Below, piece by piece: positions 2,900 to 62,315 of a DNA stretch of 64,000 nt. Made by a program: the position numbers and the translations under genes. The stretch is from assembly GCF_037042905.1 (NCBI RefSeq), contig NC_087251.1, forward strand, positions 25,360,001-25,424,000, written 5' to 3'. The stretch is from Lytechinus pictus. Lineage: Eukaryota. How positions within the stretch are numbered: position 1 is the first letter of the stretch; the number at the start of each line of letters is the position of its first letter. The notes under the pieces are model-generated. The model was not told the DNA's origin and made no database searches. It saw only the letters and a list, made by a program, of their open reading frames with translations.

Positions 2900-3800
2900 T
2901 GATTTACCTTGATGTTGGGCATAAAGTATAGAAGACTTATTTGCCCCTCTGCATCTTCTTAGAACTTGTCCTCAGTTATAAACGTAACAATTTCACATGC
3001 ATGTGTGGGTTTGGACGATTTGTGAAAATTCTGTGTCTGGGTCGAAGCGATTATACTTGGTTTTCCAGGCCTTCTCTAGATTTGATTTGAATGAATTTAT
3101 ACTGCTACTGTTTACGACCTCAGAAGGTAGGTCATTCCATAGGTTGATTACTCGTTGCGAGAAATCCCTTTGCCTGAGTGTTGAATGTGCTCTTTGCTTG
3201 ATTATTTTTCTAGAATGTCCTCTTGTCCGAGATTGAGTGTCAAGTTTGAAGAAATTTGTACAGTCTAAATCATCTATGCCCTGAATAATCTTAAACGTTT
3301 GGATCATATCCGCTCTATTTCTCCTATAGGATAACGTTGGTAGATTTAGTTTCTTCAGTCGTTCCATGTAGCTCAAGTTCTTCAGATGTGGAATTAGCTT
3401 GGTTGCTCTTCGTTGGATTTTTTTCCAGTTTTATGATGTCTTTCTTGAGATAGGGGTGCCATACACTACTGCAGTATTCTAAAGATGGTCGTATGATTGA
3501 CTTGTAAAGTTGAACCAGACCTCTTTCATCCAAATTTGAGAAGGTTCTCTTGATAAGTCCTAAGAGGCGGTTTGCTTTGGCACAAGCTTTGATCACATGT
3601 TTAGAAAATTGCAAATTGTTATCAAAGGTTACTCCCAGGTCATTTTCCTCTGTCACTTTTGGAATTTCAGAAGTGTCATCTGGTACTAGTAGGTAGCTCA
3701 TACCTGGATTATTTCTTCCAATAGACATTACTTTGCATTTCTTCTTGTTGAAAGTTAACTGCCAGTCTCCTGCCCACGACGAAAGGTTGAACAAATCATC
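2900..3800 (-). mobile_element. 5'-truncated CR1-clade LINE (RT C-terminal region and 3' end), frameshifted
   Basis: WQLTFNKKKCKVM, ENDLGVTFD, LYKSIIRPSLEYCSSVWHPY, then a shifted frame with RLKKLNLPTLSYRRNRADMIQTFKI, RTRGH, FSQRVINLWNDLP; frameshift in the T-run at ~3418-3424. Confidence 0.85.
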
Positions 3801-4220
3801 TTGTTTTCACAATTTTCTTTCCAAGTTATTGAGACCACAATCTATCCTAGTCCCATGTCTATGTTTAAATGCACTTTGGACTCCTGGGCTCTGGCCTGCT
3901 TCAGGCCAGCAGGCATGTGCAGCAGGCATGATTTTAGCTGTTTCGCTGTAGTTTTTCAGGCAAATTACACCATTATGTTTCATTCCTGACTTTCTGAGTC
4001 ATGGTACTTTCCACCAAGAAAGTGAGTAAAGTATGAGATAAATAGGATCTATATATATGTAACATACAAATGTGAAAATTTGGAACGGAAAGTGCACGAG
4101 TCAAGTGAAAGTTTTAACGCATGTATTAAGTGCCCATTACAAGCGGCTAGGTTCAATGCTTGTATTTTCTGGTAGCCACTTTTGATGACAACAAAGGGCG
4201 ATGAAATGTCCAGCTCCTAC

Positions 4221-5330
4221 GTCACTCTCAATGGGACGGTTCGCCGATGAATATTCATTGGATCATGTGCATGGGTGTGTGTGTGTGTGTGTATACTATA
4301 CCGAGTGTAAATAACGAGAGTTTTCAAATGGTGAGTGTGTATAAAACAACGTAGGGATAGGAGTTTATTTAACAGAGAATGAGACAGAGTAGTATAGTGC
4401 AGAAAATAAAAGCGTACAATGAAGTTTTACAGAAGAGGAAATAATATAAATATATGGAGGACAGTGCAAGATGAGGTAAGGCAAGTACAGTGATGTTGTT
4501 TTTTCAAAAGTATTAGTAGAGGAAATAATACAAATATATTATTGAGGACAATGTAAGATGAGATAAGGCAAACTTGTGTGCAGTGAGGGTTTTTTCAAGA
4601 GGAGATAATACAAATATGGAGGACAATGTAAGATAAGATGATCAAGGGCTCAAGGCAAACTTTTGTACAGTGAGAGCTCATCTTACATTGTCCTCTACAG
4701 TCTACATCATCATTATACATTATTTGATAAAACCTCAATGTACACGTGCCTCATCTTACATTGTCCTCTACATACCGGTATTTTTTTATCATCTCCTCTT
4801 TTGAAAAAACCTCACTGTACACTTACCACAGCTCATCTTACATTGTCCTCTTTTTATCTTATCCTTATACATTCTTTGTTTAAACCTCACTGTACACTTA
4901 ATTGCCTCATCTCATCTTACATTGTCCTCTAGATATATATTTGTATTATCTCCTCCTTTGAAAAAAAAACCTCATTGCAGACTTGCCTCATCTCATGTTA
5001 CATTGTCCTCTATAATATATTTTTTCCACATGATTTCCTCTATTACTAATACTTTTGAGAAAAAAAAATCACTGTACTTGCCTCACCTCATCTTGCATTG
5101 TCTTCCATATGTATTTATATTATTTCCTCCTCTGTAAAACTTCATTGTACACTTTAATTTTGTGCACTATACTACTCATTCTCTGTAAAATAAACTCCTA
5201 CGTTGTGTTATACACACACACACCATTTGAAAACTTTCTTTGTTTTTTACACTCGGTATTGTACACACACATGTGCACACGACCACAATCTAATGAATAT
5301 TCATCGGCGAACCGTCCCATTGAGAGTGAC
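4221..5330. mobile_element. Foldback/MITE with long inverted arms and internal short tandem repeats
   Basis: GTCACTCTCAATGGGACGGTTCGCCGATGAATATTCATT at 4221 is mirrored at ~5292-5330; internal repeats CTCATCTTACATTGTCCTC. Confidence 0.75.
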
Positions 5331-5500
5331 TATTTGAATTAGTTGATATTTTTGATAGCAGATATTTTTTTAACCAAAAGTAAGGTTTTGTGAGAGAAAA
5401 GGATTTCCAAAATTAGGAAAAACAATTATTTCAGAAAAAGGATAAATTATGCACCTAGCATTAGAATGTTTTGTTTTTATATGTGGAAACTGCACAGATA

Positions 5501-5876
5501 GTGTGTGTGTGTGTATTTGAGTTTTTGTCAGACGTGTATCAATCAGATATGATTATTTACGTCTGGGACCGACCTTTAACATCACCATCCAAAAGACGTG
5601 ACCAGGGCTCGAACCTCGAACCTCTGCATCAATTTGTAACTTCCTCACATAGCTTGGATTACAGGCGCACGCCACAACGCCCAGTTAGTGTGTGTGTGTG
5701 TGTGTATTTGAGTTTTGTCAGACGTGTATCAATCAGATATGATTATTTACGTCTGGGACCGACCTTTAACGTCACCATCCGAAAGACGTGACCAGGATTC
5801 GAACCTCGAACTTCTGCATCAAATTGTAACTTCCCCACGTAGCTTGGATTACAGGCGCACGCCACAACGCCCAGTT
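5501..5876 (-). mobile_element. Two head-to-tail ~188-bp SINE copies with 7SL-like head, B-box and (CA)n tail
   Basis: Direct repeats 5501-5686 and 5688-5876; the minus strand reads CTGGGCGTTGTGGCGTGCGCCTGTAATCCAAGCTAC...GGTTCGAATCC...CACACACA. Confidence 0.7.
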
Positions 5877-6167
5877 GAAATGCAAACATTAGTCTTCTTT
5901 CAGACGTTTAGATTTGTCTTTGTCAGAGTTAAATGCAACAAATATGCATCATTTTTTAACTGCTGCAGACACCTGTTCAGACATAGAAGATTATTTTTAC
6001 CAACAATATTCAATTTATTTGTCAAGTCCATTTAATTCAGACTGTAGATATGCATTACATGTAGGTTCATGATGATATAGAAAGTTATGTAAACTACAAT
6101 TTCAGTGATATATTTATGGTCATGAAACTGAGGATGTTTTTTCCCTCTTTTTCTTTTAACCTCCTAG

Positions 6168-8048
6168 ATTGAATAAACACAGTTACATTGGTTCTTCGGA
6201 GGCCAGCTCAGTTGATTGTTGTACTTATACAATCCCAAGAGGAATTTGCCATCCGTAATAGTTCCTTTTCGTCAACAAGCCACCTGACTTAACAAAGGTA
6301 TGTTTTATAGGGGCATATGGATCATATCTGCAAATTGTGCAAGGCTACAAAAAATACACAAAATGCACAGGGGTGAACAATTCTCAGTATTGACGTTATC
6401 ATGATGAAGTTTACAGTTTTGTAGGAAATTGTCTTCATTGTTTATTTTTGTTCGTATACATTTTAGTGTTTTCTAAGTTTGTAGGAGCAGGATGGGGATG
6501 CACAACTGACATAGAATGTAATCATGATTATAATCAAAATTGAAACACTTAGTTTCTCAATATGAAAGAATAAGTCATTGAAAAAAGAAATGTATTCTAC
6601 TAAAATTGAAAAACTTAACTTGCGTTATCAAAATCTAAAAACTTGCTTTTCGATATAAAAAACACGTCTCTCATTTGTTTACTTGTTACTGTCGCAGCTT
6701 TAATGAAACTTCCATTTAAAAGTTGTAAACAACGGGTCTCCTGGAGGATACAAGCACTTGGGCTGGTACCAACCTACACCATGGACGAGAAGAGGTTTCA
6801 TATTCAACAAGATGGATTTTCCATTTCTTTCATTAAAAGAAAGAGTACCGAATTCCAATGACTTGGGCAGTCCTTTGATCGATGAGGTAATACAGCTTCA
6901 TAGATACAATAAATAATTTTTTATGCAGTTCATGCAGGTATATCAAAGTTCAACTCTTATTTTTGGTACATGTATTTCCAAATTCTTTAAAAGAAAGAAA
7001 GAACAATCGAATTGAATGAAAAATTAACTTTTTTATATATATATATATTGTATCGTATCCGAACATCTACCCCCTGGACATCCACCTCCCGGACATCCAC
7101 CCCCCGGACATCCACCCCCCGGACATCCACCCCCTTAGGACATCTACCCCCTAGGACATCTACCCCCGGACATTTACCCCCCGGACATCTACCCCCCGGA
7201 CAATTACCCCCCGGACATCTACCCCCTAGGACATCTACCCCCGGACATTTACCCCCCGGACATCTACCCCCCGGACAATTACCCCCCGGACATTTACCCC
7301 CCCGGACATCTACCCCCGGACATTTACCCCCCGGACATTTACCCCCCGGACATTTACCCCCCGGACATCTACCCCCCGGACATCTACCCCCTAGACAATT
7401 ACCCCCTGGACATTTCAATTATTTGAGTTGTAACGTCATATTCGGGCAGCATTTCTACATAAGGAATTTTTTTTTTCTATACCTTTTCTATATCAAAGGA
7501 CCAATCATTTTACACCCAAACATGAAAAGAAAACACAAAATAACAAAAATATGTCCTCTGGAACCATTAAAAAATGAAATTCATGCATTTTATATTACAT
7601 AACTTTATTTGGCAGCTGCTCGTGTGTGTGACGCCACAAATCCAAAGGCTAAGCTTAGAATTCTAATAAATTTTTTAATATTTAACAGATTTTCCTCAAA
7701 CCTTCACCAATTTTTTTGTCTCACCTGCATAGCAGACTTGTTTTGTCCAAGTGAACTTTCATGTTAAGATTGAATGAGTTGCAATTATCTTAACTTTAAT
7801 ATATTTTAAAAAATTATTTGCTTCTAAATTGAAGACAAAGTGAAGATTGAAATGGTTTGATTTGTTTCAGTAGCAAAAGAGGTGCAGACTGCAGAGCTTC
7901 AAAATATTTGATATCGCTATAATATTGTCAGTACTCTATATCATTCTTATCATTCCAACTATTTTGAGGCCGCCTGAATCGCAAACCCTGTATGGCCAGT
8001 TTTTGTTTATGACAAACAATGATGAGGGATGGCTGAAAATCCCTCCAG
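6168..8048 (+). pseudogene. Decayed intron-split Mutator/MULE-like transposase relic (exon-like blocks 6168-6297, 6698-6886, 7871/7874-8048)
   Basis: Frame-hopping translation gives KQRVSWRIQALGLVPTY (6728-6777), KMDFPFL, NYFEAA*IANPVWP (stop where W is expected, 7975) and TNNDEGW (8012-8032). These resemble MULE motifs in the expected order, and each block has AG/GT boundaries. Confidence 0.6.
7058..7413. repeat. 15-bp minisatellite (CCGGACAYYTACCCC), about 23 copies
   Basis: Direct tandem repeat; the ORFs at 6987-7418 and 7012-7602 are artefacts of it. Confidence 0.95.
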
Positions 8049-8315
8049 GTAAGTTGGGGTTTATGTAATTGACATGGTAACCAAATATGAATTTAGTAAT
8101 TTATAACAGGATGTATATTCCTGAAACAAAGTGCAATTGTTTGATAAATGTTAATTGAATTGGCCACTATTGTAATTTTAAGATTGTCCTTATTGTTAGC
8201 TTTACATAGACACCAAAAACAGAGGATATTGTTCCCAACTGGAATTATGATATTACTATGCTATTAACATATTTATCATCATAATAATGTATCTGGTAAT
8301 GTAATGCTATCTTAA

Positions 8316-8896
8316 AGGGATGGTCCGGGCTGAAAGTATGTGTTGCTTAATAAATAGAGTAGAATTCACTGAGCAAAATGCAGAAAATTTCATCAAAATC
8401 GGATAACAAATAACAAAGTTATTGAATTTTGAAGTTTAGCAATATTTTGTGAAAACAGTCGTCATGAATATTAATTAGGTGGGCTGATGATGTCACATCT
8501 CCACTTGTTATTTTGTATTTTATTATATGAAATTAGGTTTATTCAATTTTTTTTCCTCCAAGAACTAGAAAAATTGGATTGTCAACTGAATAGTGCATTA
8601 AATATTTATTGCTGCAACTTATTTCATTATAACTAAGGGAGACATTCAGACGAGTATGAAATAATGAAAAAAATATGATTTTATGTAATAACATAAGACA
8701 ACAGAAAGTGGAGATGTGACATCATCAGCCCACCTAATGAATATTCATGACAACTGTTTTCACAAAATATTGCTAAACTTTAAACTTCAATAACTTTATT
8801 ATTTGTTATCCGATTTTGATGAAATTTTCGGCATTTTGCTCAGTGAATTATACTCTATGTATTAAGATATAAATATTTTCAGCCCGGACCATCCCT
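8316..8896. mobile_element. Kolobok-like MITE
   Basis: TTAA|AGGGATGGTCCGGGCTGAAA...TTTCAGCCCGGACCATCCCT|TTAA with long inverted arms. Confidence 0.8.
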
Positions 8897-10253
8897 TTAA
8901 GTTTTGAACCAGGATTTGATTTTTGTGGGATATAATATACATGTATTTTATATACACCTCAGTTCAATATGTGTTACAATGTAACTGTACATCTGATTAA
9001 GTTTATCTTATTGTTACTTAATAAAACCACTTTACTCCAAAGAAGTATTTTGAATATTGGGTTCTTTCACTATGAAGTATTCTTTATCCCGCTTAATATT
9101 CAACCTTTAATGAGAGCTGTGGTAATGAGTTCCATGACACGCTCTGGCGACAATTGCTCCGCTGTAAATTCCACACACTATTCAGCTTCAACCCCTAAAC
9201 CTACCATGAAACCCTATTGCAACCCTGACCCTCGAAGACAGAATTAATCCTGGGGCAATTATCGCAGGAGCAAATGTTGGGTCACCTGGTAATCAGATGG
9301 AAATGATTGGAGAGATGAAGATTAAATGGGGGGGGGGGGGGTGGTGGAGATGATGAAAGGTGGGATGGCCATGATGATGAGTGATGGAGTTGAGAAGGGT
9401 GGGGACGACGAGTGGATGGAGATGATGAGAGGAGGAATGGGGATGATGCAAGGATGGATGGAGATGATGTGGGAGGGATGGAGATGATAAAGTTTAGAGA
9501 TGAGTGGGTTACAAGAGACGAGCAGGGAGATGAGGTGGATGGAAACGATGTGGAAGGGTTGACATGAGGAGAGGTTAGAGATGAGAGGAAGGATTGAGAT
9601 GAAAGCTGGAGATGTGAAAATGGTTGGAGATGAAAAGGGAGTGATCATCATCAACTTCATCAATATCATTGCCATCACCACACCATCATGATCATCGTCA
9701 CTATCATGACCATCATAATCACCATCATTATTAATATAATTAATTTCATTATCACCACCAAATAAATTATCATTGGCGTAATGAGCCAAAGATTTTGAGA
9801 GGGACAAGATATGGCAGATTGTGCCAGTATTTTTTATTTTAATTGTGAGCAAGCAAACTTTTCTATATTTTTATTACGTAATTTTACGTTTTGATAGATT
9901 CTGACATAATACTGAAAATCTTCTCTCTTTTCTTTCTCTTATTATTTATGTTTTGTATTTTATTATCATTTTTTTTGGGGGGGAGGGGGGGGGCTCTTTC
10001 CCCCAAGACCTCACCCCCACCATCATCACCAATTTCATCATCACTATCATCAAAATACCCGTCAACACCACTGGCTTCATCATCACCATCATCGACACCA
10101 TTACTATCACTATCCTCATCATCACCACCCACCTCATCACCATCACCAGTCTATAATTATCATCTTCACCCACATCATTATCCTCATCACCACATCTTGA
10201 TCATCATCTTCACGATTATTTCATCTGTGATTTCATACATAGAAACTACAGTA

Positions 10254-11878: not shown

Positions 11879-12594
11879 AGTAGTACTAAGTATATGTCAC
11901 ATTATTTTTTACCATGCTTGAGATTATACTTTATATGACTTGACTTTATATTATATTCTCACCCAAAAAGGACATTTCAATGATTACTAGTAGAAATCAA
12001 TGAAGATGATTTATATCTCCCTTATCAAATCAGCGCGTATTGAAAAGCTTTGACAATAGAACCAGAGAATAATGTATTTCAGAACTATTTGTGAGAATTA
12101 ATGAAAAGTAAAATATCAAAATGCAAACCGGCAGCAAGAGAAGTCATATTTGCGTTAAAAAAGGAATATTTCTGTTTGTTGGAATTTTAAGAGAATTAGT
12201 ATGATTAACATCAATCAAAAAGTGGCATGAATATTCATCCCTGCATAAAGACATGCAAGATTAATTTTCTAAATGTGTTGGAAACTGCATTACCATGGTA
12301 ATAACAAGAGGTATCCCTTTTCAGCACTGTTATTCTTTTACCTTTTCATTTTTTTCCATTTCTTTATTCGCGCCCCTTTTCCCTTTTTGCACCACCTACA
12401 TACGACCCTGACATTGATACAATAGTAATATCTATTTGATGGAAGCTCCTATACAGTCAGTGCGTCCAAAAAAAAAACTATACACTTTTGAAATGTCTGC
12501 CAAACAAAAAAATATATCACTTTGGGGGGGAAAAGCCAATAAAGTCAACCTTCAAAGACACCCATAAGTGTTTAGCGAGCACTCCCCACTATGT

Positions 12595-13155
12595 TGATTT
12601 GAGTAAATAGAGAAAAATCAAACTTGCTGAACGCTGAAGATTTCATCAAAATCGGATGTAAAATAAGAAAGTTATGACATTTTAAAGTTTTGCTTATTTT
12701 TCACAACACAGTGTTATGCACAACTCAAATGAGACGGCCGATGATGCCCCTCACTATTTCTTTTGTTTTATATTGTTTGAATTATACAATATTTCATTTT
12801 TTATAGATTTGACAATAAGGACCAACTTGTCTGAACAATATAGTATTAAATAATGCTAATTCTACATGTTCAGGGAGGAATTAATCGTTGTTTCACTTGA
12901 CAAAGAGGAGAAAAATAGAATATTCCATATTTCACATAATAAAATACAAAAGAAATAGTGAGTGGATTATGTCATCAGTCTCCTCATTTGCATACTGACC
13001 AGCATGTGCATAACTGTTTTGTGAAACTAAGCAAAGATTTAAAATGTCAAAACTTTCTTTTTTTTACATCCGATTTTGATGAAATTTTCAGTGTTATACT
13101 TGTTTGATATTTCTCTTTTTATTCAATCCACTATTTGTTGGGATGGACTTGTTCT
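12595..13155. mobile_element. Kolobok-like MITE, left end degenerate
   Basis: Shares TTTCATCAAAATCGGATGTAAAATAAGAAAG arms with 61551-62315; ends GGACTTGTTCT|TTAA. Confidence 0.65.
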
Positions 13156-13744
13156 TTAAAGAAAGGGTATGAAAATAAGGCTGGGCATGAATTAGCCTTA
13201 CAATTTCTGCCAGTTCTGAGAGGCAAATCCTTTAATTGAAACCTGAAAAATTAAGGGTGTTGTGATGAATTAATGATCAATCATGACCAGTTTGGTTGTT
13301 CAAGTAAATTTCATAAATTATTAAATTGAACTTCAATGCATGAGTGAACACAAATTGTACTTTTCTGGGCAGCATTTTAACTTTATCATGTGGATCTTCA
13401 TGGGGGTCGGGATAATAGGGAGTGAGATGGCACTTAGTGGGAGAATTAGGTTGATGGAATAAGGGTTAAGAGAACATTTAGCCCCCTCCCTCCCCTCCTG
13501 TTGACAGACAGATTGCTATTACATGTGCGTAAGAAAGTCAAGAGCACAATGTTGATTTAATGATAAATAATGAAAATCGGGAGTGGTGCATCAAGTTTTA
13601 CCTATCAATCATTTATTAAACAATTTATCAATAAGTCTACTCATAATCAATGTGTAATGTGATCAAGCAAACATTCATATTTTTCAATAAATTATTAATA
13701 AATCAACATAATCAGTCAATATCTTGGTAATCATTCCATGAAAA

Positions 13745-14797
13745 AACAAGTGGAGCGCCTCTGGCAGTCTCACTCGCATCAAACGATTCACACTCTGAAA
13801 CATACTATGAAATAATTATTCACAAAAACACCATTCATGTATAATGATACAATACTACGTTCATTGACATTTGACCTTGATCATGTGATCTAAAACTTGT
13901 CAGAGATACTTGATTACCCCTATATCCACATTTTATACACTATATCTATAAACTTTGAGAGGTCATGTGACCTGTACCTCACACAAGACATTCAGTGATA
14001 TTTGGTTACTCTTACATGTATGTCCAAGTTTCATGAATAAGATCCATAAAGCTCTCAAAGTTATGATGGTAATTCAACAGATACCCCCATATGGCCAAAG
14101 TTCATTGACTCTAAATGACCTTTGACTTTGGTCATGTGAAGTGAAATTCGCACAGGATGTGTAATGGTACATGATTACTCTTATGTCCAAGTTTCTTGAA
14201 TCAGATCCAAAAACTTCAGAAGTTATGATGGTAATTCAATAGATTATGGCCTAAGTTCATTAACCTTTGAACTTGGTCATGTGACCTGAAATTCGCACAG
14301 GATGTTCAGTGATACTTGATTACTCTTATGTCCAATTTTTATGAACCAGACCAATAAACATTGAAAGTTATGATGGTAATTCAACAAATACCCCAATTTG
14401 GCCAAAGTTCATTGACCTTAAATGACCTTTGACCTTGATCATGTGACCTGAAATTCACACAAGATGTGTAGTGGCACAAGATTACTCTTATGTCCAAGTT
14501 TCATGAATCAGATCCATAAACTTTTAAAGTTATGATGATAATTCAACAAATACCCCCAATTTGGCCAAAGTTTATTGACCCTAAATGACCTTTGACCTTG
14601 GTCATGTGACTCAAAATTCAAGCAGGATGTTCAACAATACTTGATTAACTTTATAGAAAAGTTTAATGAACTAGGTCCTTATACTTTCTACGTTATACTG
14701 TCATTTAAAAAACTTAACCTTCGGTTAAGATTTGGTGTTGACGCCGTCGGAAAAGCGGCGCATAAGGTCTCACTATGCTTCGCAGGTGAGACAAAAA
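13745..14797. mobile_element. Helentron/HINE-like non-autonomous element with ~125-bp internal tandem repeats (copy 1)
   Basis: Starts AACAAGTGGAGCGCCTCTGGCAGTCTC and ends GCAGGTGAGACAAAAA; internal repeats GACCTTTGACCTTGGTCATGTGAC; A-run insertion site. Confidence 0.65.
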
Positions 14798-15388
14798 TCA
14801 CTTTCAGTCACAAAAAGTTACATGTTGAAAGGTTTTACTAGAAGCTACATATACATTGCCACTACAAGCATACATGGCAGTATTAAAACTCAAGTTAAGG
14901 ATAGAGATAGAGAATTAAAAAAGACACTGTGGAGACAAAATTATCTCAAATTTACTTCTTATGCCAGGTGTAAATTAATGCAATGAGTCATTATACAGAA
15001 AAGATAAATAATATCAAGCTTCTATTTTAGCTTTGTTCCTTTAAAAAATACTTAAATGAGAGAACAAATTGTTCTTTTGTTTTACAAAAACAACATTGCC
15101 ATAAGTAACAAGTCACACTCTGAAGAAAAAAAACACAATAATGATAATAAAGCATGGAGTGGTTTTAAAATGAATTCTCTGTAAACTTTCTAAGTTCTGT
15201 CTGAACATCTTTACAAATCAATGGTTATAAAACGAACCCAACATGTATCTCAATAGATAATAAAAACCTATAGATTTTTTCTTGAAGTGTTGATCCTGAC
15301 CAATCACATACTTTCCATCAAAAACTCCGCATTCAATGAATTGTGAAAGAAAACATAACAAAGTACAACTTTACAACAAAAACAAAAG

Positions 15389-16345
15389 AAACAAGTGGAA
15401 TGCCTCTGGCCGTCTCACCTGCATCACGCGATTCAATATAGCAGCAGTGCTGATTTTGAAAACTACTATAACTCGCACAAGATGTTCAGTGATACTTGGT
15501 TACTCTTATTTCCACGTTTTATGAACTAGACCAATACACTTATAGAGATATGATGGCAATTCAACAAATACCCCCAACGTGGCCAAAGTTCTTTGACCTT
15601 AACATGACCTTTGACCTTGATCATGTGACCTGAAACTTGCACAGGATGTTCAGTGATACTTGATTACTATTATGTCCAAGTTTTATGAACTAGACCAACA
15701 CACTTTCAAATTTATGGCTGTAATTCAACAAATACCCCAATTTGGCCAAAGTTCATTGACCCTAAATGACCTTTGACCTTGATCATGTGACCTGAAACTT
15801 GCACAGGATGTTCAGTAATACTTGATTACTATTATGTCCAAGTTTCATGAATCAGATCCATAAACTTTCAAAGTTATGATGGTATTAATTCAACAGATAC
15901 CCCCAATTCGGCCAAAGTTCATTGACCCTAAATGACCTTTGACCTTGGTCATGTGATGTGAAACTCAAGCAGGATGTTCATTGATACTTGATTAACCTTA
16001 TGTATAAGTTTCATGAACTAGGTCCATATATTTTCTAAGTTATGATGACATTTCAAAAACTTAACCTTAGGTTAAGATTTTGATGTTGATTCCCCCAACA
16101 TGGTCTAAGTTCATTGACCCTAAATGACCTTTGACCTTGGTCATGTGACATGAAACTCAGGCAGGATGTTCAGTAATACTTGATTAACCTTATGGCCAAG
16201 TTTCATGAACTAGGTCCATATACTTTCTAAGTTATGCTGTCATTTCAAAAACTTAACCTCAGGTTAAGATTTGGTGTTGACGCCGCCGCCGCCGTCGGAA
16301 AAGCGGCGCCTATAGTCTCACTCTGCTATGCAGGTGAGACAAAAA
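15389..16345. mobile_element. Same family, copy 2
   Basis: Same termini; subterminal inverted GTCTCACCTGCAT / ATGCAGGTGAGAC. Confidence 0.7.
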
Positions 16346-16650
16346 CCACTCCTAGTCTCCTAATAGCTTTTCCTAGTATTTATCAAAAAACGTCTACAAA
16401 GACAATATACAATCATGTACAGTAACCAGGGCAGTATTGAGCTCTATAATACCCTATAGGCCAAGATGTTCAATTCACAATGGACTTGGAATAGATTAGT
16501 TATTATCAAAGTATAAACACAAACAAAATAATTGAAGAAGTGGCTACATACATCAAGCTATAGCTCTTAATGTTTCCTTACGCCAGATGTATGAGTTCTT
16601 ACAAAAAGGATGATGCTTTTACAAACAAAAATGTATTGTAAAGTACAGCT

Positions 16651-18075
16651 AAAGTGTGCCAGGCCAAAATCCAAAATGGCTGCCAACCCCCCCCCCCCCC
16701 CCCCCCCAATCAAAGTTTTGCCCACATATAATATGTTGGTTTTTTTTTTTGGGGGGGGGGAGCAGGCAATTTGTTTTACCTGAAATGATTACTTAAAAAC
16801 CATTAATTTTGGAGTTAAAAGGTGATTTTACCTACATTTACACATACAATACCCCCTTTAGCCCCAAATTAGGTTTCTTGTGGTTCTTGGATATTGGACG
16901 ATACCAGTTCCATAATAGCAAATAATTTCAAATAGCTATTTGCTCTTATTCTTCTACTTTGGGTTTTACGGATATTTGCGAAAAATATATTATTGGAAAA
17001 AAAAATCTTATTATCCATAGGGGCTATACAGTATACATTGTATTGTACATACTACACTGCATTCATGTATATTCATGCATTGACCATCATGACAAGGTCT
17101 GTATATAAACTATAGTGTGATACTAAATGAGTTATTGAGAAATTGAAGATACTGTATATTTTGTCTCAGATTGAAGACATATTTTGTCAATTATGCTCAT
17201 TCAGGGGGGGGGGGGAGGAAAATATCTTTAACAATGGATTAAAGTCACCCCCCCCTATTATGGCACTTACACTGGGTTTCTGATTATGGTAACTTTGCCA
17301 TCCAATGGTAACTTGCATGGAATCCTGAAAGCCATTGACCAGCGTTACCACATGTGGTATACCTGACTCCATAATATAGGATTAGAATACCAGGTAAAAA
17401 CAAGCTGCCAAATGAAGATGTGGCTGAAAATATGATGTACATGTATGTACGTACACTACATGATGTTTACATGCAATTTATGTTCATCATCGGGTTACAT
17501 CATGTTCATCAGCTAACAAGCAATCAAATTCACAAGTCACAATCTAATTCTAAACCTCAGAAGCTCACTACTACATGCATGCCACTGGTATAAGTCCTAG
17601 TTGTATGCCATGGTGGTCAATGCATGGATATGTATGCAGTGTACAGTATGTACCATATATTGTACACCGTGCCACCCCTATGGATACCGTAAATTACATT
17701 TTTTCATTTGATAAGATGTATTTCGCAAATATCCGTCAACTCAATTTAGAGGAATAAAAGCAATATAGCTATATGAAGCTGCTTACTACTGGTCAACTGG
17801 TGTCATCTAATATCCAAGAACCACAAGACGATGGAACCTAATTTTGCTTTAAAAAGGGTCTAAAAATTTGCAAATTTAAGTTAAAATCACCTCTTAACTT
17901 TACAAATAATGGTTTAAAAGAACTAATTTTAGGAAAAACAAATTGCCTGCCCCCCAAAAAAACATGAATAGACACCAAAACCAGATAAAATGACCACCAA
18001 GAAAGAAGTTGTGGCCAAAACTGTGATTTGGGGGGATTTTGGCGGCCACTTTAGATTTGGGCCCGGCACACTTTT
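16651..18075. mobile_element. TIR-bounded non-autonomous element
   Basis: AAAGTGTGCCAGGCCAAAATCCAAAATGGCTGCC is mirrored by GGCGGCCACTTTAGATTTGGGCCCGGCACACTTT; degenerate arms of ~300 bp. Confidence 0.6.
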
Positions 18076-18145
18076 TTCTCGGACCACCGTGACCAGACAC
18101 AAATAATATTGTCATTTCATGTTGAGATAAGGTTAAAGGAATACA

Positions 18146-18970
18146 AAACAAGTGGAGTGCTTCTGGCAGTCTAGCCTGCATTACGCGATTTAATATAGCA
18201 GCAGTGCTAACTTTGAAAACTACTATAAAATAATCATTCACAAAAACACCATTCATATGACATTATACCACGTTCATTGACTATAAATGACATTTGGACG
18301 GTGAATAAAACTTGTCAACTACACCCATGTCCACATTTCATTCACTCTATCCATAAGCTTTCAAAGTAATGATGGCAATTCAACAATTACCCCGACATGG
18401 CCTAAGTTTATTGACCTTTAACTGACTTTTGACCTTAGTTTTGTGTCCTGAAACTCACAGGGGATGTTCAGTGATACTTGATTACTCTTATATCCCAAGT
18501 TTTATGAACTAGATCCATAAACTTTCAGAGCTAGGATGGTAATTCAACAAATACCCCCCAACACGGCCAAAGTTCATTGGCCTTAAATGACCTTCGACCA
18601 TGTTCATGTGACCTGAAACTCGCACAGGATATTTGGTGGTACTTGATTAACCTAATGCCCAAGTTTCATGAACTACATTGTAGATCCATAAATTTTCAAA
18701 GTTATGATGGTAATTCAACAAATATCCCCAACCTGCCAAAGTTCATTGACCCTAAATGACCTTTGACCTTGGTCATGTGACCTGATACTCAGGCAGGATG
18801 TTCAGTAATACTTGATTAACCTTATGTCCAAGTTTCATGAACTAGGTCCATATACTTTTTGAAGTTATGTCATTTCAAAAACTTAACCTTGGGTTAAGAT
18901 TTGATGTTGACGCCGACGCCGTCGGAAAACGGCGCCTATAGTCTCGTTTTCTATGCAGGCGAGACAAAAA
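18146..18970. mobile_element. Helentron/HINE-like family, copy 3
   Basis: Same termini and internal repeats as 13745-14797. Confidence 0.7.
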
Positions 18971-20050: not shown

Positions 20051-20377
20051 CGCCCGACGACGCCCCGGGCTGCTCTGCTCAGGCGCTGGTATGACCCACT
20101 CACACGTACCTTGTTCATTGCACCGGCTCGAGCTCGAGTCACCGACGAAGATTGGGTTAACGTTAGGATTCCTATCCCTCAACAAATAAGGTCGCTGGCT
20201 AATTTCTTGAATCTTGCGGCATCATAATCTTTTCTATTAAATATACAGAATCATATCTTGTTCTCTGGTCCGGTAAAAAGGGGGGAAAAACTCAAAATCA
20301 AACTTAGAGCCTTCCAATATTCTCCATGTCCAGGGTCGAATGGCGCCCACTACTGGCTTACAGTGAATAACCCTGAT

Positions 20378-21298
20378 TATCGAAATTGAAAAACCTAGTT
20401 TATCGAATCGAAAAACTTAGTTTATCGAATCGAAAAACCTAGTTTATCGAATCGAAAAACCTAGTTTATCAAAATCGAAAAACCTAGTTTATCACTTGAA
20501 AAACCTAGTTTTTCAAATCGAAAAACTTAGTTTATCGAATCGAAAAACCTAGTTTTTCAATTTCGATAAACTAGGTTTTTCGGCGATAAACTGAGTTTAT
20601 CGCCTTTATAGGACAAATGGCGTCCTTATTGGACGCCATTTGTCCCATAAAGGCGATAAACCTAGTTTATCGAATTGAAAAACCTAGTTTATCGAAATTG
20701 AAAAACCTAGTTTATCAGATTTGAAAAACTTAGTTTATCGGCGATAAACTAGGTTTTTCAAGTGATAAACTAGGTTTTTCAATTTCGATAAACTAGGTTT
20801 TTCAATTCGATAAACTAGGTTTTTCAATTCGAAAAACTTAGTTTATCACTTGAAAAACTTAGTTTATCAAATAACTCTGTTTATCAAATGAAAAACTGAG
20901 TTTATCGCTTGAAAAACTAAGTTTATCGAGAAAAACTAAGTTTTTCACTTGAAAAACCTAGTTTTTCATTGAAAAACCTAGTTTTTCATTGAAAAACTTA
21001 GTTTATCAGTGAAAAACTTAGTTTTTCGACGATAAACTTAGTTTTTCAATTGAAAAACTAAGTTTATCAAGAAAAACCTAGTTTTTCAATCGAAAAACTA
21101 AGTTTTTCGGCGATAAACTTAGTTTTTCTTGATAATCTTAGTTTTTCAAGTGATAAACTTAGTTTATCGGCGAAAAACTAAGTTTATCGGCGAAAAACTT
21201 AGTTTTTCAATTGAAAAACTAGGTTTTTCGATTGATAAACTAGGTTTTTCGGCGATAAACTGAGTTTATCGCCTTTATGAAACAAATGGCGCGCCATA
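20378..21298. repeat. Right terminal palindrome array of element Y
   Basis: Same 17-bp unit. The outer part mirrors 941-1295; the inner part is arranged differently. Confidence 0.9.
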
Positions 21299-21304
21299 TA
21301 CGTG

Positions 21305-22193
21305 CGCGCGCGCGCCCGCTCACAAATTCGATAAACTGAGTTTTTCAATTTCGATAAACTAGGTTTTTCAATTCGAAAAACTTAGTTTATCGAAATCGAA
21401 AAACCTAGTTTATCGGCGAAAAACTAAGTTTATCGGCGATAAACTAGGTTTTTCGATTCGATAAACTTAGTTTTTCGATTTCGATAAACTAGGTTTTTCA
21501 ATTCGAAAAACTTAGTTTATCGAAATTGAAAAACCTAGTTTATCGGCGAAAAACCTAGTTTATCGCCTTTAATTATGAGACAAATGGCGTTCTTAGAAAA
21601 ACTCAGTTTATCACTTGAAAAACCTAGTTTATCGCCTTTATGGGACAAATGGCGTTCTTAGAAAAACTCAGTTTATCAGATTCGAAAAACTTAGTTTATC
21701 AGAATTGAAAAACTAAGTTTATCACTTGAAGAACCTAGTTTTTCGCCGATAAACTAAGTTTATCACTTGAAAAACTCAGTTTATCTAGAAAAACTCAGTT
21801 TATCAGTCGAAAAACTAAGTTTTTCAAGAAACTCTGCTTTTCACTTGAAAAACCTAGTTTTTCATTGAAAAACTTAGTTTTTCATTGAAAAACTTAGTTT
21901 ATCGGTGAAAAACTTAGTTTTTCGCCGATAAACTTAGTTTTTCAATTGATAAACTAGGTTTATCAAAAAAACCTAGTTTTTCAATTGAAAAACTAAGTTT
22001 TTCGGCGATAAACTTAGTTTTTCTTGATAAACTTAGTTTTTCAAGTGATAAACTTAGTTTATCGGCGAAAAACTAAGTTTATCGGCGAAAAACTTAGTTT
22101 TTCAATTGAAAAACTAGGTTTTTCGATTGATAAACTAGGTTTTTCGGCGATAAACTGAGTTTATCGCCTTTATGAAACAGATGGCGCGCCATA
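21305..22193. mobile_element. Terminal array of a second, oppositely oriented family member (element X), split by Y
   Basis: Near-exact reverse complement of 941-1821, including private variants (ATCTG terminal variant; AAAAGCAGAGTTTC at ~1294 vs ~21830). Confidence 0.8.
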
Positions 22194-24950
22194 TGCGTGC
22201 GCGTGTATAGATTTAGAACTACTAATAGTATCTGGGCATTTTTTGTCATAAAAATCAATAATGCGAGCGCGAAGCGCGAGCAGAAAATATTTGATTTTCC
22301 GATCTGAAAAGGGGTGAATTAAAACACTATTTCAAGTACTGTGTCGGAAAATTCTGAAGGGAGAGGGGGGGGGGGAGGTTTCTACAAAACGTCGTTCATT
22401 TTCATTACATTTCTGTCATTTGTCATACCTATAAAAGACGCAGAACCCCCAAGGAAAAATAATTATATTTGCTTCAGCACCCCCAGCATCCCCGCTTCCC
22501 AGCGGCATGGGGCAGGGCGAAAAAGACTGTTTGAATTTGTTTTGTATTGTCTGATTTGTAATTGTTCATACAAAACACGGGCGGTCGGGGCGCGCACACT
22601 TGATTGGGACTTGATTCGACGTAAAAGCTGGAAGTTTCGAGTCCAACCACACCCATAACCGCGCTCGACCACGTCTGTACCGGAGTGCATGCCGGAGCTT
22701 AGGAGGGCCAGGGATATTGGAATATGCGAAAGACAGTAGCGAATTATGATTTGTGATTGTCGGATGTGACAACTATGTACATTATAACATATTTACAAAA
22801 ATACAGGGGCCGGGGAACCTGATTTCGTGGGGGTGCTGCCTATGGAAAATAATACACGCAGCACCCCCAGGAAAATTTATGGGGGGTGCTTCAGCACCCC
22901 CGCTTCCCAGGTCCATGGCTAACGCCGAGGACATTGAATTAAGCAACTAACTCGGATACGACCTGGCGCAGATAATCTACTAGATTGAAGAGCTCCAACT
23001 TAACACCAACACCAACCAACCTGCTGGTGATGCAATTTGACAGTTTTTGCGCAAGTGATGGAATTTCGGGGTTTTTTGTATCTCAATACAAATGTAAAAT
23101 TACAAACATTATTTTTTATACATGTAGAGTAAATTAGTAAATGCAAAAATATCATAATATACAAGCAGTAATGATATTAAATGGGGTACTAAAATTTTGT
23201 GACTGATAAATCAATTGATAATTGAATTAAGTTAAAGCAGGTGTTGAGGGGCGGGGAAGCTTCAGCCCCTTTTTTCCCGGCCCAATCGTGAACAAAATAC
23301 GTACATGACCATCTGATTAATGTTTTTTTTTGTTTTTGCAAGTTTTGTTTTGTTTGTTCAGTCCCATGAGTGTCGATCCCGTGGGAGGGGGAGGTGGCGT
23401 GCATTGGTATATACCTCAACAATTCATGTGGGGATGACCTGTATTATCACCCAATAATTTACGGTAAAACATTAAAATATTCACGTCTTTTCACGATGAA
23501 TCATAATTATGGTAAGTATATGATTATGATGAAGAAGGGATAGTCTAAGATTATAAAGATGATGGTCAGATATACACATGATGATCATCTTTTTATTTAT
23601 CTTAATTCTGTTTGTGTTTATTGTTATTGAATTCAACGATTCCTTTTGGAAACAGACAAAGATGCATGGAGAAAGACAAAAAGTAAAGAATTAAAAGGAA
23701 TAAAATGTTCACCTTTTTGTTTTTTAATGTATGACATACCCTTTTCCCCCCTGAAGTTTACCATTCCCTGCAACCAAGCGCATAGTGTGTGCCCCATATA
23801 TGATTATGCACCCTTTAAATATCATCTCATTTTTGTTGGCATTCTTTACTCAGGTTTATGATGTAAAATAAGTAGAGGGGTTATAGACAACTGAAATTTA
23901 AAAGAGGGTATAAAACAGACAATAGCCCTAGTATATTTTCAGGTCACTATAAAAAAAGCTTATATACGCTTCATGCTCGCATTATTCTTTGAGAAGTACA
24001 AAGTATTGTAAAACTAAAGCTAAAATGAAATACCCATGCACTTTCAAACCGTTTCAAACATTCTGCTTCTAAAGGATTACCCCCAAGCTGAAATTGAGAA
24101 AAAAATACCTTAACTTGACGCAATGACTAGAATTCAATTTACAAAGCGCTGAAAATGATATAAAAATATGATAAAATAATTATAAGTTATTGAATTCTAA
24201 ATTTCAGTACTATTGAATGCCGTTAAGGATAGGCTATGCAATTGTATGTCATACCCATATTTTTCCCATTCTTACCATCCAATTTCATTTATCATGTACA
24301 TTATCATAATCTTGGGTGCTTTTGTCATTATTCTCCGTTTACCCCGCCGTTTACACATCCTATGTGTTGACTTGTAATTATGTAATCAGCCTAAACAATG
24401 TTGGGCTAATTCTGTATTTTATTCATGAAAAACAACTAAATTATCATTATACAATTCGTATTTTCAGGGACCTAAGAAATACAATCCCTGTTTTTAATTT
24501 CAGCACCACCACTTTTGTTTTCCGCAGAAACCTCTTTTCCAACTTAATTAGTCATTGAATACTTTGTTATTTTTCAAGACGTGTTTACATATTCAACTTT
24601 ATAATTATTGTAATCCAATCATTTTTTGGTTTATCATGTATGTATTATTATAATTATATTTGTTCTTTGTTTATCATGTATGTATTATTACGATGTGTAG
24701 ATGAAAACAAAAATGGGAAAAAAATTCAAATCAAATCAAATATCCATGTCATTATGTTATTTCTGGTATTCAGAGAAAAGAGTGTACTGAACACAGTCGG
24801 ATCAAGGGGGTCGAAGCAACCGCTGCCCCCACAATCTCGTAGCCAAGGGGACTAGGTGCCCCCAAGAATTTAAAGGTTGGTTGACATTTTATATTATGAT
24901 AAAGAGCCTATTTACCATATGACGTAATACATTAGTCATAACTTTGTTTG

Positions 24951-27559: not shown

Positions 27560-28114
27560 TTAGAGAAAAATCAAACAAGCATAACACTGATGATTTCATC
27601 AAAATCGGATGTAAAATAAGAAAGTTATGACAAATTAAAGTTTCGCTTAATTTTACAAAACGGCTGTATGCACATCCTGATTGGTATGCAAATGAGGCTG
27701 ATGATATCATCCACTCACTATTTCTTTTGTATTTTATTATATGAAATATTAAATATTCTAATTTTCTCCTTATTGTCAAGTGAAACAACGATTAATTCCT
27801 CCCTGAACATGTGGAATTAATATTTGTTAATACTATGTTTTAGTCAAGTTAGTCCTTATTGTCAAATCTGTAAAAAAATGAAATATTGTATCATTCAAAC
27901 AATAAGAAACAAAAGAAATAGTGAGGGACATCATCGACTGTCTCATTTGCATGTCACTGGGTTGTGCATATCACTGTTTTGTAAAAATAACCAAAACTTT
28001 AAAATGTCATAACTTTCTTATTTTACATCCGATTTTGATGAAATTTTCAGTGCTATGCTAGTTTTATTTTCTCTATTTATTCATATCAACATTTTTCTGG
28101 GGTGGACTTGACCA
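27560..28114. mobile_element. Kolobok-like MITE, left-truncated
   Basis: Family arms as in 61551-62315; right end GGGGTGGACTTGACCA|TTAA. Confidence 0.65.
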
Positions 28115-30362
28115 TTAAGCTTTCTTATGATAAATGACTTGCTAGCGACAAACATACTATATAAATTCTACCCCCAAATCATCACACTCCCCCTCCTGTC
28201 TTATTTCTTTGTCTTTCTTTCTGACTCTCTCTCTGTCTCGCTCCTATTTTTTCTTCCTCTATAGTATAATCTCTCTTTCTTCTTCTCTGTCAAACATTCT
28301 CTCTCTCATCTCTCCCATTTCCCCTGCTTCTTCATTTCTCTTCATAAACCGAACTCCTTCGTTATTTACTCTCTCTTTGCGTCCCTTCTCCCGCCACTTC
28401 TACTCTAATAGTCTTGTCGCACATAACATAATTTTGGATATCTTTCAAGAACGAAGTCCGTTAGTGCTGCCGTTGACAATCCAGGCATTATCAGGCATCG
28501 CAATGCCAATATGAATATTTTCATAATAAATAAATTGTTCAATATTACTCAGATTAGTAAATGAGTATTGATCAGGAATGAATCTCACTATACATTATGG
28601 GATTATTGAACATAAAGAATTTAATCTGTTAGTTTAAAAGAACTTATATTTTGTAACTTCATTCAGTCCCATATTTACATAATTATACATTTTTATATAG
28701 AAAGTGCATGCATGTGTACGGTGTAAGTCTAATGATGCTCAAACATTTAAAAGACAAAGGACAGAATTTTATTGAAATATCTGGGGAAAACCCCAACGAC
28801 TTGACTGAATGTTCATATCAACTAATATTCGTTCATTGGTAGATTGAAAAAAATCAAGCGCGTACTGCTATGTCAGATTGTGCTTGCATAGGTTTTGCAA
28901 GCAATTCTAGCGCATGTGCAATAATAATGCGAAATGACTTTTATCCCTCTTTTTATGTCCCCGTTTCTCTTTCCCTCTCTCTCTTTTCAGTATTCCCCTC
29001 TCTTACTGCACCTTTCTGCAATGACAACGAAATCTAAAAGAAATTCAATTATATTTTTTCACAGTGACCATTTATATATTTTTTATTTCACATATTCACA
29101 AAGGAAACTATAAAGAAGAATGGAATATATAAGTCGCAATATTAGAATAAGATTTGATTAAAGATTGACATAAGTTAATATAATCATGAAGTTTGCAGTT
29201 TTTACAAACCATACAAATAAAGTTCCAAATTTCAAGCAACAGTGGTATTTGATTAATATCAACGTTTAGTGTTTGATAGCTAATATGAAATTCTAATAAA
29301 ATATGTGTAACTTGAAACAATAAAAACTTTTACTTCATTCAGCTGAAATTAGATATGAAGTGCACTGTTTTAACCTATAGACAAAAAAAGAAAACAGAAA
29401 AGGATTATCTTTAATCTACCAAAACAAAAAACGGCAAACACACTTAGTTAAAAAATGATACCAGCATTGAACCTTGTTTCTAAAGTATCTTCAGACAGGA
29501 ATCCATTCGATGTTCAATGACAAAAAATGTAAACCGAGTTGAAAGTGAATAATAAAAATAAACAGACTCGACAGCACCCAGATAAGAAGGGTAAAATGAA
29601 CCAAACATTATGTTTAATTTGATTTCTTAAAGAAAAAGTTTGGGCTCTGGAAAGTTATATGAGCATTTTATATTGTTTCCATATCCTCCCTTCTTCCTTC
29701 TCTCTCCTTCTTTTCCGTCCTCCTATTTTCTTCATCACTTGAAGAAAAAAAAGGTGCTCGCCCCTGCCCTCCGTAACTCCAACATTTCGAATGCCAAATA
29801 TATTAGGCAGAATCCCTTGAGTGAAACGAAAACAGGTTCCGTATGAACATGGTTTTTTTCTTCTTCAAAACGTTTTTTTTTCTTCTTATTCATAAATTTT
29901 GCTTGGCATTTTGTGCGCAGACTGCCCTGTTTTTTGATCCACTGAAAGTGCTATATATTAATGTGCTCTCTATATATAGTTTAAATCATTGGAAAATAAA
30001 ACAATTACTAGTATTTTACTGCCAGACTGATTTCATAAAAGAGAGAGAAATAACAAATTTCTGTAATATAATCCGTTTGAAAAATGAAAGTTATTTTCTC
30101 ATCATTTGGAAGTTTCACGGAGTATGATAATACCAACACCATTTCAATGACATCAAAGTTTTTATTTCCTATCTATCTTGTCTATTGATAAAGGTGTTTG
30201 CAAAATCGTCACCTTAAAACGATGTTGGTTTGCTTATCGACATGGATGTTACGAATGCTTTAAACAACTTTACAAAACGGCGAATTTACAGGAATTAAGG
30301 CAATTCTATGCTGATGCAAAAGTATTTGGTTGAATAGCTTTAGGAGTTTGTCTGGTAAGAAT

Positions 30363-30535: not shown

Positions 30536-31513
30536 CTATAATGATTTGAAAAAAAAAAGAAAAGTGAAGCAACTTCAGTGTGATGCCTTCTTATTACCGG
30601 TATTGAATATTATGTTGATGAATGATTCATTTCTGTATATAAATATTAAACAAAAACGTAATCGGTGAATTGAATCAATATCTGATAAATAATGTTTTAT
30701 TACGTCCATTGGTATCCCCTTGTAGTTACATGCGAACCAAAGATTGGTTGAAATTTTGAACTAACATTCGCAGTCGGACGAAATTTATATTACTTTATTG
30801 CAAATTATATATGACGAAGATGTATCCAAACAACATCATGTTCACGCCCCCTTTCGTAGTGGCATTCATTATTAAAAAAGAAATCACACACGTTTCCACT
30901 GATTACTGAATAGGAACATGACGAATTGAGGAGATACAAATAGTAGAGAAAGTCTGGCACTGGATTCGTCAATCGTTACTACCTTATAAGTGAAATAATA
31001 TGAAGCGAGTTATGCATAACGTTTTGTCTCAAAACAAACCCTCTATTCAGCCCAGTCCTCTATATTTACCTCTCCTCCCCCAAATCGATCCACCAATACT
31101 TACATGTTCCACGTTCCTGGAGCCTTAGCTTCTTGCAGATCTCCTTGAGCTTGGCTTCCTTGTCAATGGCGGCCAACAGGGGGATTTTGACGTGCACACT
31201 GCAGCGGACACCAGTACCGAGATTGCTTGGACAGGTAAGAATGAAACCAAGATGCTCACTCCACATGAACTCGGAACCATTCTGCTTGATGTAGTCCTCC
31301 ACCTGTTGATGAATTTAAAAAATGCAGAATACTTTAATGTATTGTTCCATATTCATTATCGCCTTTATCACTGTCGATAAGCGATATGCTTTTGTTAGCA
31401 TTTCTACCATCATCATCATCACCATCAACATCATCATGATCATGATCATCATCATCATCTTCATCATCATCACCACCATCATCATCATCATCACCACCAC
31501 CACCACCACCACC

Positions 31514-31548
<35 letters not shown>

Positions 31549-31576
31549 GATCAACATGATCATGATCATCATCATG

Positions 31577-31614
<38 letters not shown>

Positions 31615-31667
31615 ATTCATCATCATGATCATCACCATCATCATGATCATGATCATGGTGTTGATGT

Positions 31668-31704
<37 letters not shown>

Positions 31705-61550: not shown

Positions 61551-62315
61551 AGGTCAAGTCCACCCCAGAAAAAAAGTTGAGTTGGATAAATAGAGAAAAA
61601 TCAAACATGAATAACACTGAAAACTTCATCAAAATTGGATGTAAAGTAAGAAAGTTATGACATTTTAAAGTTTCGCTTATTTTTCACAAAACAGTTCTAT
61701 GCTCAACTCAGTGATATGCAAATGAGAGAGTCGATGATGTCACTCACTCACTATTTCTTTTGTTTTTTATTATCTGAATTATACAATATTACAATTTTTA
61801 CAAATTTGACAATTAGGACCCCCTTGCTTGAACCACAAAATGTTAAAATAATGGAATTACATGAGTTCAGGGAGGAATGAAACTTTGTTTCACATGACAA
61901 TGACGAGAAAATCGAAATATTTCATATTTCATATAATAAAATACAAAAGAAATAGTGAGTGGGTGACGTCATCGGTTCCCTCATTTGCATACAGACCAGG
62001 GGAGTGTTTAATGAAAGGACTTGTCGGACGTTTTATCCGACAAATCCTGTTTTATCCGACAGTTACCATAGTAACAGTGCCTCTCAGCCAATCAGAATCA
62101 AGGAAAGATGTCAGATCTGACATCTTGTCGGACAAAATTGTTGATGAAACGCTCCCCCGGATGTGCATATAACTGTTTTGAAAAATTAAGCGAAACTTAA
62201 AAAGTGTTATAACTTTCTTATTTTACATCCGATTTTGATGACATTTTCAGTGTTATGCTTGTTTGATTTTTCTCTTTCTATTCAAATCAGCTATTTGTTT
62301 GGGTGGACTTGTCCT
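61551..62315. mobile_element. Kolobok-like MITE with nested short MITE (~61996-62160)
   Basis: TTAA|AGGTCAAGTCCACCC...GGGTGGACTTGTCCT|TTAA. Confidence 0.8.

Follow-up and report, generated by a model that had tools for sequence, protein, structure and literature searches.

A pair of adjacent repeats in the genome of the echinoderm Lytechinus pictus probably represents a SINE that was made by swapping the 5′ domain of 7SL RNA onto a SINE of the tRNA/Deu type. The repeats lie in a 64,000-nt stretch of DNA, referred to here as the window (contig NC_087251.1, positions 25,360,001 to 25,424,000, assembly GCF_037042905.1). Each unit is likely to be a copy of a non-autonomous retroposon that measures about 170 nt without its (CA)n tail. 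Both begin with the 7SL 5′ domain, which is followed by the linker, the tRNA-type B box, the Deu/Nin-like start, the stem-loop and finally (CA)n (Table 1).

A preliminary description of this DNA had placed a head, a B box, a body and a (CA)n tail here, on the minus strand and in two tandem copies. All of these parts are present, and the B-box and body strings that it quoted are exact in copy 1; copy 2 departs from them at two positions in the B box and at two CpG positions in the body. Across the window, TRF identifies an array with a period of 190, 2.0 copies and 95% matches, and by BLAST the two copies are 95.2% identical over 186 nt. They differ by eight substitutions and one added base. 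CpG is largely preserved, with 12 and 9 CpG in the two copies (observed/expected 1.3 and 1.0, compared with 0.74 for the window), fitting young copies of the unit. A motif of the head matches the window twice and 100 shuffles not at all.

Table 1. Tandem units and other features of the window (positions counted from the first letter of the window).
Feature	Position	Strand	Evidence or detail
Tandem pair of ~188-nt units, head-to-tail	5501-5876	minus	TRF + BLAST
Copy 1	5875-5688	minus	
Copy 1 head (element 1-47), matching the 5′ Alu domain of SRP (7SL) RNA	5829..5875	minus	Rfam RF00017, E 1.3e-6
Copy 1 linker, element 48-67	5809..5828	minus	no significant Rfam match
Copy 1 tRNA-type T arm and pol III B box	5792..5808	minus	motif position
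Copy 1 body, ~38 nt resembling the 5′ beginning of the Deu/Nin SINE domain	5755..5792	minus	by eye
Copy 1 3′ stem-loop, candidate LINE-recognition signal	5719..5755	minus	z -3.3
Copy 1 A-rich end and (CA)n tail	5688..5718	minus	
Copy 2	5685-5501	minus	
Copy 2 head, 7SL 5′ Alu domain	5639..5685	minus	Rfam RF00017, E 6.6e-6
Copy 2 linker, T arm/B box variant, Deu/Nin-like start, 3′ stem-loop	5529..5638	minus	
Copy 2 A-rich end and (CA)n tail	5501..5528	minus	
Large palindromic element with 20-23-bp internal satellite	309-2438 and 20342-22203		
Arms of the palindromic element	936-1561 and 21573-22198		99% complementary, 20 kb apart
Non-LTR reverse transcriptase, C-terminal fragment with frameshifts	2993-3806	minus	19 homologues, best E 9e-43; PF00078 in 2/19
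Fold-back element, MITE-like, ~170 nt from the pair	4221-5330		inverted arms 82% identical over 446 nt; internal repeats
15-bp minisatellite	7059-7413		23.5 copies
Dispersed palindromic ~550-nt repeats, MITE-like	8311-8901, 12591-13159, 27562-28118, 46902-47340, 61547-62289		70-86% alike
Several clusters of a 160-190-bp tandem repeat family	13900-18870		
(CAT)n followed by (ATG)n	31408-32002		long imperfect palindrome
Phosphagen kinase gene	34171-35764	minus	exons at 35764-35588 and 34335-34171

The two exons of the phosphagen kinase gene have their best match in the arginine kinase PDB 3JU5 (E 4e-16 and 4e-20), ahead of vertebrate creatine kinases. PDB 3JU5 is a sea cucumber enzyme of an echinoderm type, and the match makes an echinoderm host plausible.

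What is the origin of the head? An Infernal search of region 4500-7000 with 4227 Rfam families gave 15 matches at E<=10. Metazoa_SRP was the best family on both units, with 34.3 bits (E 1.3e-6) and 31.9 bits (E 6.6e-6), which is half of the gathering score of 70. The preliminary description had proposed a 7SL-like head and named this search as a check; both heads were indeed matched, albeit below the gathering score. The good alignment runs from model position 1 to about 47, and beyond it there are few matches and the pairs are non-standard. Thus, the 5′ Alu domain of the proposed head was borne out, while its 7SL part extends over only 47 nt. The comparison is with the family consensus, which may differ from the 7SL gene of the host.

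The 47 nt of copy 1 contain the three helices, the loop-loop pairing and the position of the 7SL A box. In both copies 17 of the 19 Alu-domain pairs are preserved (3/3, 6/8 and 3/3 in the helices, 5/5 between the loops), a count reached by none of 20,000 shuffles. The helices were taken from the Rfam alignment and the loop-loop pairing was added according to the Alu fold; by itself the count is unspecific, as 13 other 47-mers of the window, many of them in repeats, equal it. The Alu fold of the head is not its minimum-energy fold (-8.0 versus -12.8 kcal/mol). In the closing helix, two of the three pairs deviate from the Rfam consensus on both sides and the pairing is intact. These compensated pairs suggest copying from a functional 7SL RNA of different sequence, and not from a decayed Alu.

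Narrowed Rfam searches with the linker and B box of the unit, and with the 5′ part of one of the metagenome relatives described below (L002), gave only non-significant matches (E 0.43-8.4). In each copy a motif search places the beginning of the B box at element 71, and a second short B-box-like word is found at element 65. The surrounding sequence can form a fold like a T arm, with four of five pairs, within a non-significant mascRNA alignment. The A box of 7SL occupies positions 6-15 and the B box of human 7SL positions 76-86, according to PMC7245038. The head covers the A-box region, and internal pol III A and B boxes therefore appear to be present, at a spacing near that of 7SL. There is no run of four T in copy 1. 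In copy 2 a CpG change has created one at element 92-95 that may stop the transcript early; this counts against the pair being an active dimer today.

The body, when compared by eye with published alignments, shows an exact run of 13 nt with AmnSINE1_HS and of 12 nt with BivaMD-SINE1, and the Deu/Nin-like part comprises only the first ~38 nt, where the criterion for a Deu/Nin central domain is 70 bp or more. A single scan of metagenome contigs with a body motif yielded three loci, all in marine contigs and in unrelated flanks. These resemble the unit with 92.8% identity over 97 nt (L002), 84.9% over 106 nt (L003) and 85.4% over 96 nt (L001). At all three loci the likeness spans from the T arm and B box through the body and hairpin to the start of the tail, and the Deu/Nin-like ~38 nt are nearly invariant. 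The similarity thus starts at the T arm, which places the junction between 7SL and SINE there, between element 48 and 68.

Upstream of this junction the relatives differ from the unit. Their 5′ parts show no similarity to its head and linker (353-2000 of 2000 shuffles score as well), and the linker of copy 1 likewise resembles none of their heads. Rfam gave no match to the three loci at E<=1, and ARAGORN called no tRNA in them. In L002 and L003 the B box is preceded by A-box-like motifs, and the 5′ parts of these two loci are weakly alike (15 of 2000 shuffles score as well); these look like worn tRNA-type heads, though uncalled by either program. Because the same body stands behind other heads in L001-L003, it is best seen as a mobile module and the tandem unit as a chimera, in agreement with the chimera of 7SL and a tRNA-like SINE that had been proposed from the first inspection. 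In metagenome contigs, the SINE body is found behind at least three different 5′ ends.

The 3′ stem-loop has a z score of -3.3 in the unit (52-nt segment), -4.5 in L002, -2.7 in L003 and -1.3 in L001. None of the 28 predicted pairs covaries among the unit and L001-L003. L003 carries a 9-nt insertion inside the hairpin loop and ends in a different microsatellite. In BLAST comparisons, no LINE sequence of the window, including the reverse transcriptase fragment, has a 3′ end in common with the unit. Scans of viral contigs with two body motifs and of prokaryote genomes with one found no loci (0 and 0, and 0, respectively); five prokaryote loci with a shorter body motif were dropped as chance matches of only 18-21 nt. 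In the supplement files of PMC4824008 and PMC4758252 that were searched, two body motifs are absent.

Has the chimera dispersed, or was it formed only once? A 7SL fragment could have joined a tRNA/Deu SINE in a one-off retrocopy that was then duplicated locally, and in this case there would be no 7SL-headed family. This is unlikely, though several observations are consistent with it. The window has tandem copies only: BLAST, nhmmer and a body profile found no third copy in its 64 kb, and dispersal is therefore not demonstrated from the window alone. All three outside relatives are without a 7SL head. The spacer between the copies consists of two bases, and the identical two bases directly follow the tail of copy 2. 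No target-site duplication flanks the pair, the longest exact common word at this one locus being 4 nt; a degenerate candidate was dismissed because its gapped match was equalled by 358 of 5000 random pairs. Some LINE clades leave no target-site duplication. By self-BLAST, the flanks of the pair have no copy elsewhere in the window. The pair itself may stem from one insertion that was duplicated locally, or else a further element may have inserted at the tail of an existing one.

Other features argue against a single event. Five of the eight substitutions are non-CpG changes, all inside element 41-79, and the three CpG changes are all in copy 2; this pattern is more like that of two source variants than that of decay following duplication, which is a weak argument. 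The 7SL sequence breaks off precisely where the 5′ Alu domain ends, and an arrangement with 7SL first and the SINE last is the one expected under selection for a working promoter. A further weak argument comes from sequencing runs, where shares of words from the unit lie above the level expected of the body.

For this comparison, 44 words sampled from the unit were sought in 24 sequencing runs. Fourteen runs contain 36-46% of the words, 13 of them from three organisms and one from a seawater metagenome. The shares are 0.07-0.11 in six runs (labelled, among others, sea urchin, echinoderm, marine, estuary and fish metagenome), which are left out of the argument, and next to nothing was found in four. 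None of the 24 runs holds half or more of the words. Of all words, 32% come from the body and tail of the two copies, a level that is exceeded by 20 of 44 (P 0.03), whereas shares of 0.43 or less do not differ significantly from the body-only expectation (P 0.06-0.28). If head-only words are allowed to come from the 7SL gene, the excess fades to P 0.22. The word shares thus hint, weakly, that the runs also contain words from the head or linker.

A real SINE family might also have obtained its head from a foreign or ancient 7SL-derived element and not from the 7SL gene of the host, which would leave no independent origin. By eye, nucleotides 1-30 of the head are identical at 28 of 30 positions to SINE1-1_EBu, a 7SL-derived SINE of the hagfish Eptatretus burgeri. 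However, the Rfam consensus shows this stretch to be the most conserved part of metazoan 7SL, there is no likeness to the hagfish element past base 47 (again by eye), and the closing helix has compensated pairs of its own. Such a source is therefore improbable.

It is highly improbable that the head is a degenerate tRNA or a chance GC-rich sequence that resembles 7SL. The Rfam scores under the gathering score and the tRNA-type B box would agree with this, but E values of 1e-6 against 4227 families, the loop-loop pairing of 5/5 and the compensated helix would not. A closer likeness to tRNA had been named in advance as the result that would overturn a 7SL head: no tRNA family is among the 15 Rfam matches at E<=10 in region 4500-7000, and ARAGORN found no tRNA gene in the window. 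The evidence supports a head that is 7SL-like, not tRNA-like. Human Alu contamination or misassembly is extremely improbable, as the preliminary description had already argued: although the head is Alu-like and Rfam also matches there the mir-1268 family, presumably Alu-derived, the body past base 47 is as in marine metagenome contigs, the tail is (CA)n without poly(A), and the unit sits seamlessly in invertebrate-type DNA (36% GC; 31-42% in 2-kb bins of the window).

If the unit is a SINE with a swapped head, how does it compare with known SINEs? SINEs that derive from 7SL are described as extremely rare and as reported from no lineages but supraprimates, hagfish and, most recently, shrew moles (PMC13023118, 2026), or from primates, rodents and hagfishes (PMC10886601, 2024). 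The rarity given in the preliminary description thus holds; its restriction mainly to Euarchontoglires is too narrow, given the elements of hagfish and a shrew mole (PMC7245038, PMC13023118). No 7SL-headed SINE of an invertebrate appears in the literature searched, and there is a small but real chance that an entry for such an element already exists in Repbase, Dfam or SINEBase. The sea urchin SINEs described in the publications consulted are SINE2-series elements whose bodies are of the Meta, CORE or Deu type.

SINE1-1_EBu (also Ebu1-1) is the closest known case. It too consists of a 7SL 5′ end followed by the 3′ portion of a pre-existing SINE with a tRNA head, and has a microsatellite tail in place of poly(A), with an inferred non-L1 partner (Kojima 2020, PMC7245038). 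It differs in retaining 96 nt from the 5′ end of 7SL, including the 7SL B box, as well as the 7SL 3′ end and hence a full Alu domain; it is 282 bp long, with an RTE-derived body, an (AAC)n tail and target-site duplications of ~17 bp (PMC7245038). In the L. pictus unit, by contrast, 7SL contributes only 47 nt, the B box is of the tRNA type, the body starts like a Deu/Nin domain and the tail is (CA)n; no target-site duplication was seen.

Alu, B1 and Tu, which are supraprimate SINE1 elements, and the shrew mole element Urop share a 5′ Alu-domain head with the unit; one monomer of Tu is of dual 7SL and tRNA origin, and Alu and Urop form head-to-tail dimers (PMC13023118). In all of them a central 7SL deletion of ~183 nt has retained the 3′ end, and they have poly(A) and use L1 (PMC13023118), whereas the unit is without the 7SL 3′ end and without poly(A).

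Should the unit be classed as a SINE1? It has a head that appears to derive from the 7SL 5′ end, which is what defines the class. The complete Alu domain of known SINE1s, made up of both 7SL ends, is absent; the stretch that is forced onto the 3′ end of Metazoa_SRP is the T arm and Deu start common to the relatives L001-L003, which are without such a head. The B box is not of 7SL origin as in known SINE1s but of the tRNA T-arm type, as in L001-L003. Lacking the 7SL 3′ part and the 7SL B box, the unit would work like a SINE1 but is a variant and not a member of any described SINE1 family. SINEBase asks for at least 60% identity to tRNA, 5S or 7SL over at least 60 nt; the clear match to the Rfam SRP consensus spans only 47 nt, which the linker at element 48-67 may extend if it derives from 7SL. 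SINEBase defines a SINE as shorter than 1 kb, interspersed and not tandem (PMC3531059); the unit measures ~188 nt and is present in the window only as a tandem pair, and the body occurs in three unrelated metagenome contexts.

In DeuSINE/Nin SINEs (SINE2-3_SP, AmnSINE1 and BivaMD-SINE1) the Deu/Nin start directly follows the B box, as in the unit; the sea urchin element SINE2-3_SP is likened here by its published description (PMC4824008, PMC4758252). Their domain is 70-330 bp, compared with ~38 nt in the unit, and their heads are tRNA or 5S, not 7SL. This superfamily offers a precedent for exchanging the head for that of a different pol III RNA, in that a 5S head took the place of the tRNA head of Deu-SINEs in a like manner (PMC4758252).

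By what mechanism could the unit have formed and moved? It is proposed that an older SINE with a tRNA-derived head lost the 5′ part of that head and received nucleotides 1-47 of 7SL in its place, most likely through template switching during reverse transcription. The 7SL A box and the tRNA-type B box of the old head would then form a hybrid pol III promoter that drives transcription. The 47-nt head would fold as the 5′ Alu domain, bind SRP9/14 and take the RNA to ribosomes. The reverse transcriptase of a non-L1 LINE may read the 3′ stem-loop and (CA)n tail.

By analogy, the head most likely serves as one half of the promoter and as an SRP9/14 handle. The second role is suggested by its size, which equals that of a 46-nt 5′ Alu domain reported to bind SRP9/14 and to support retrotransposition in HeLa cells (PMC11760393). 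The engineered minimal Alu domains in question, SA46/AY46 (Moldovan et al., PMC11760393), have 46 nt of 7SL compared with 47 in the unit. Their binding to SRP9/14 and promotion of retrotransposition were shown, whereas binding by the unit is predicted. They also differ in being artificial, with a pol II promoter, a poly(A) tail and human L1 as partner in HeLa cells.

It is slightly more likely than not that the tandem unit belongs to an undescribed, active echinoderm SINE family, the first 7SL-headed SINE outside vertebrates and the fourth independent origin of such elements, in which the 47-nt 5′ Alu domain alone was grafted onto a tRNA/Deu SINE. It is decidedly unlikely that head-to-tail pairs move as a unit and represent an early stage of Alu-like dimer formation. 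If the family is real, the minimal module that binds SRP9/14 would have a counterpart in nature, and delivery of the RNA to ribosomes through SRP9/14 would be shown to aid retrotransposition by a non-L1 LINE. All 7SL-derived SINEs are said to need the same central deletion, which retains both 7SL ends (PMC13023118, PMC10886601). A family in echinoderms that has the 5′ domain alone would break this rule and bring 7SL-derived SINEs into invertebrates. It would also directly test whether the Alu domain is retained for SRP9/14 binding or merely as a promoter, with the sister elements that carry the same body behind other heads as a built-in control.
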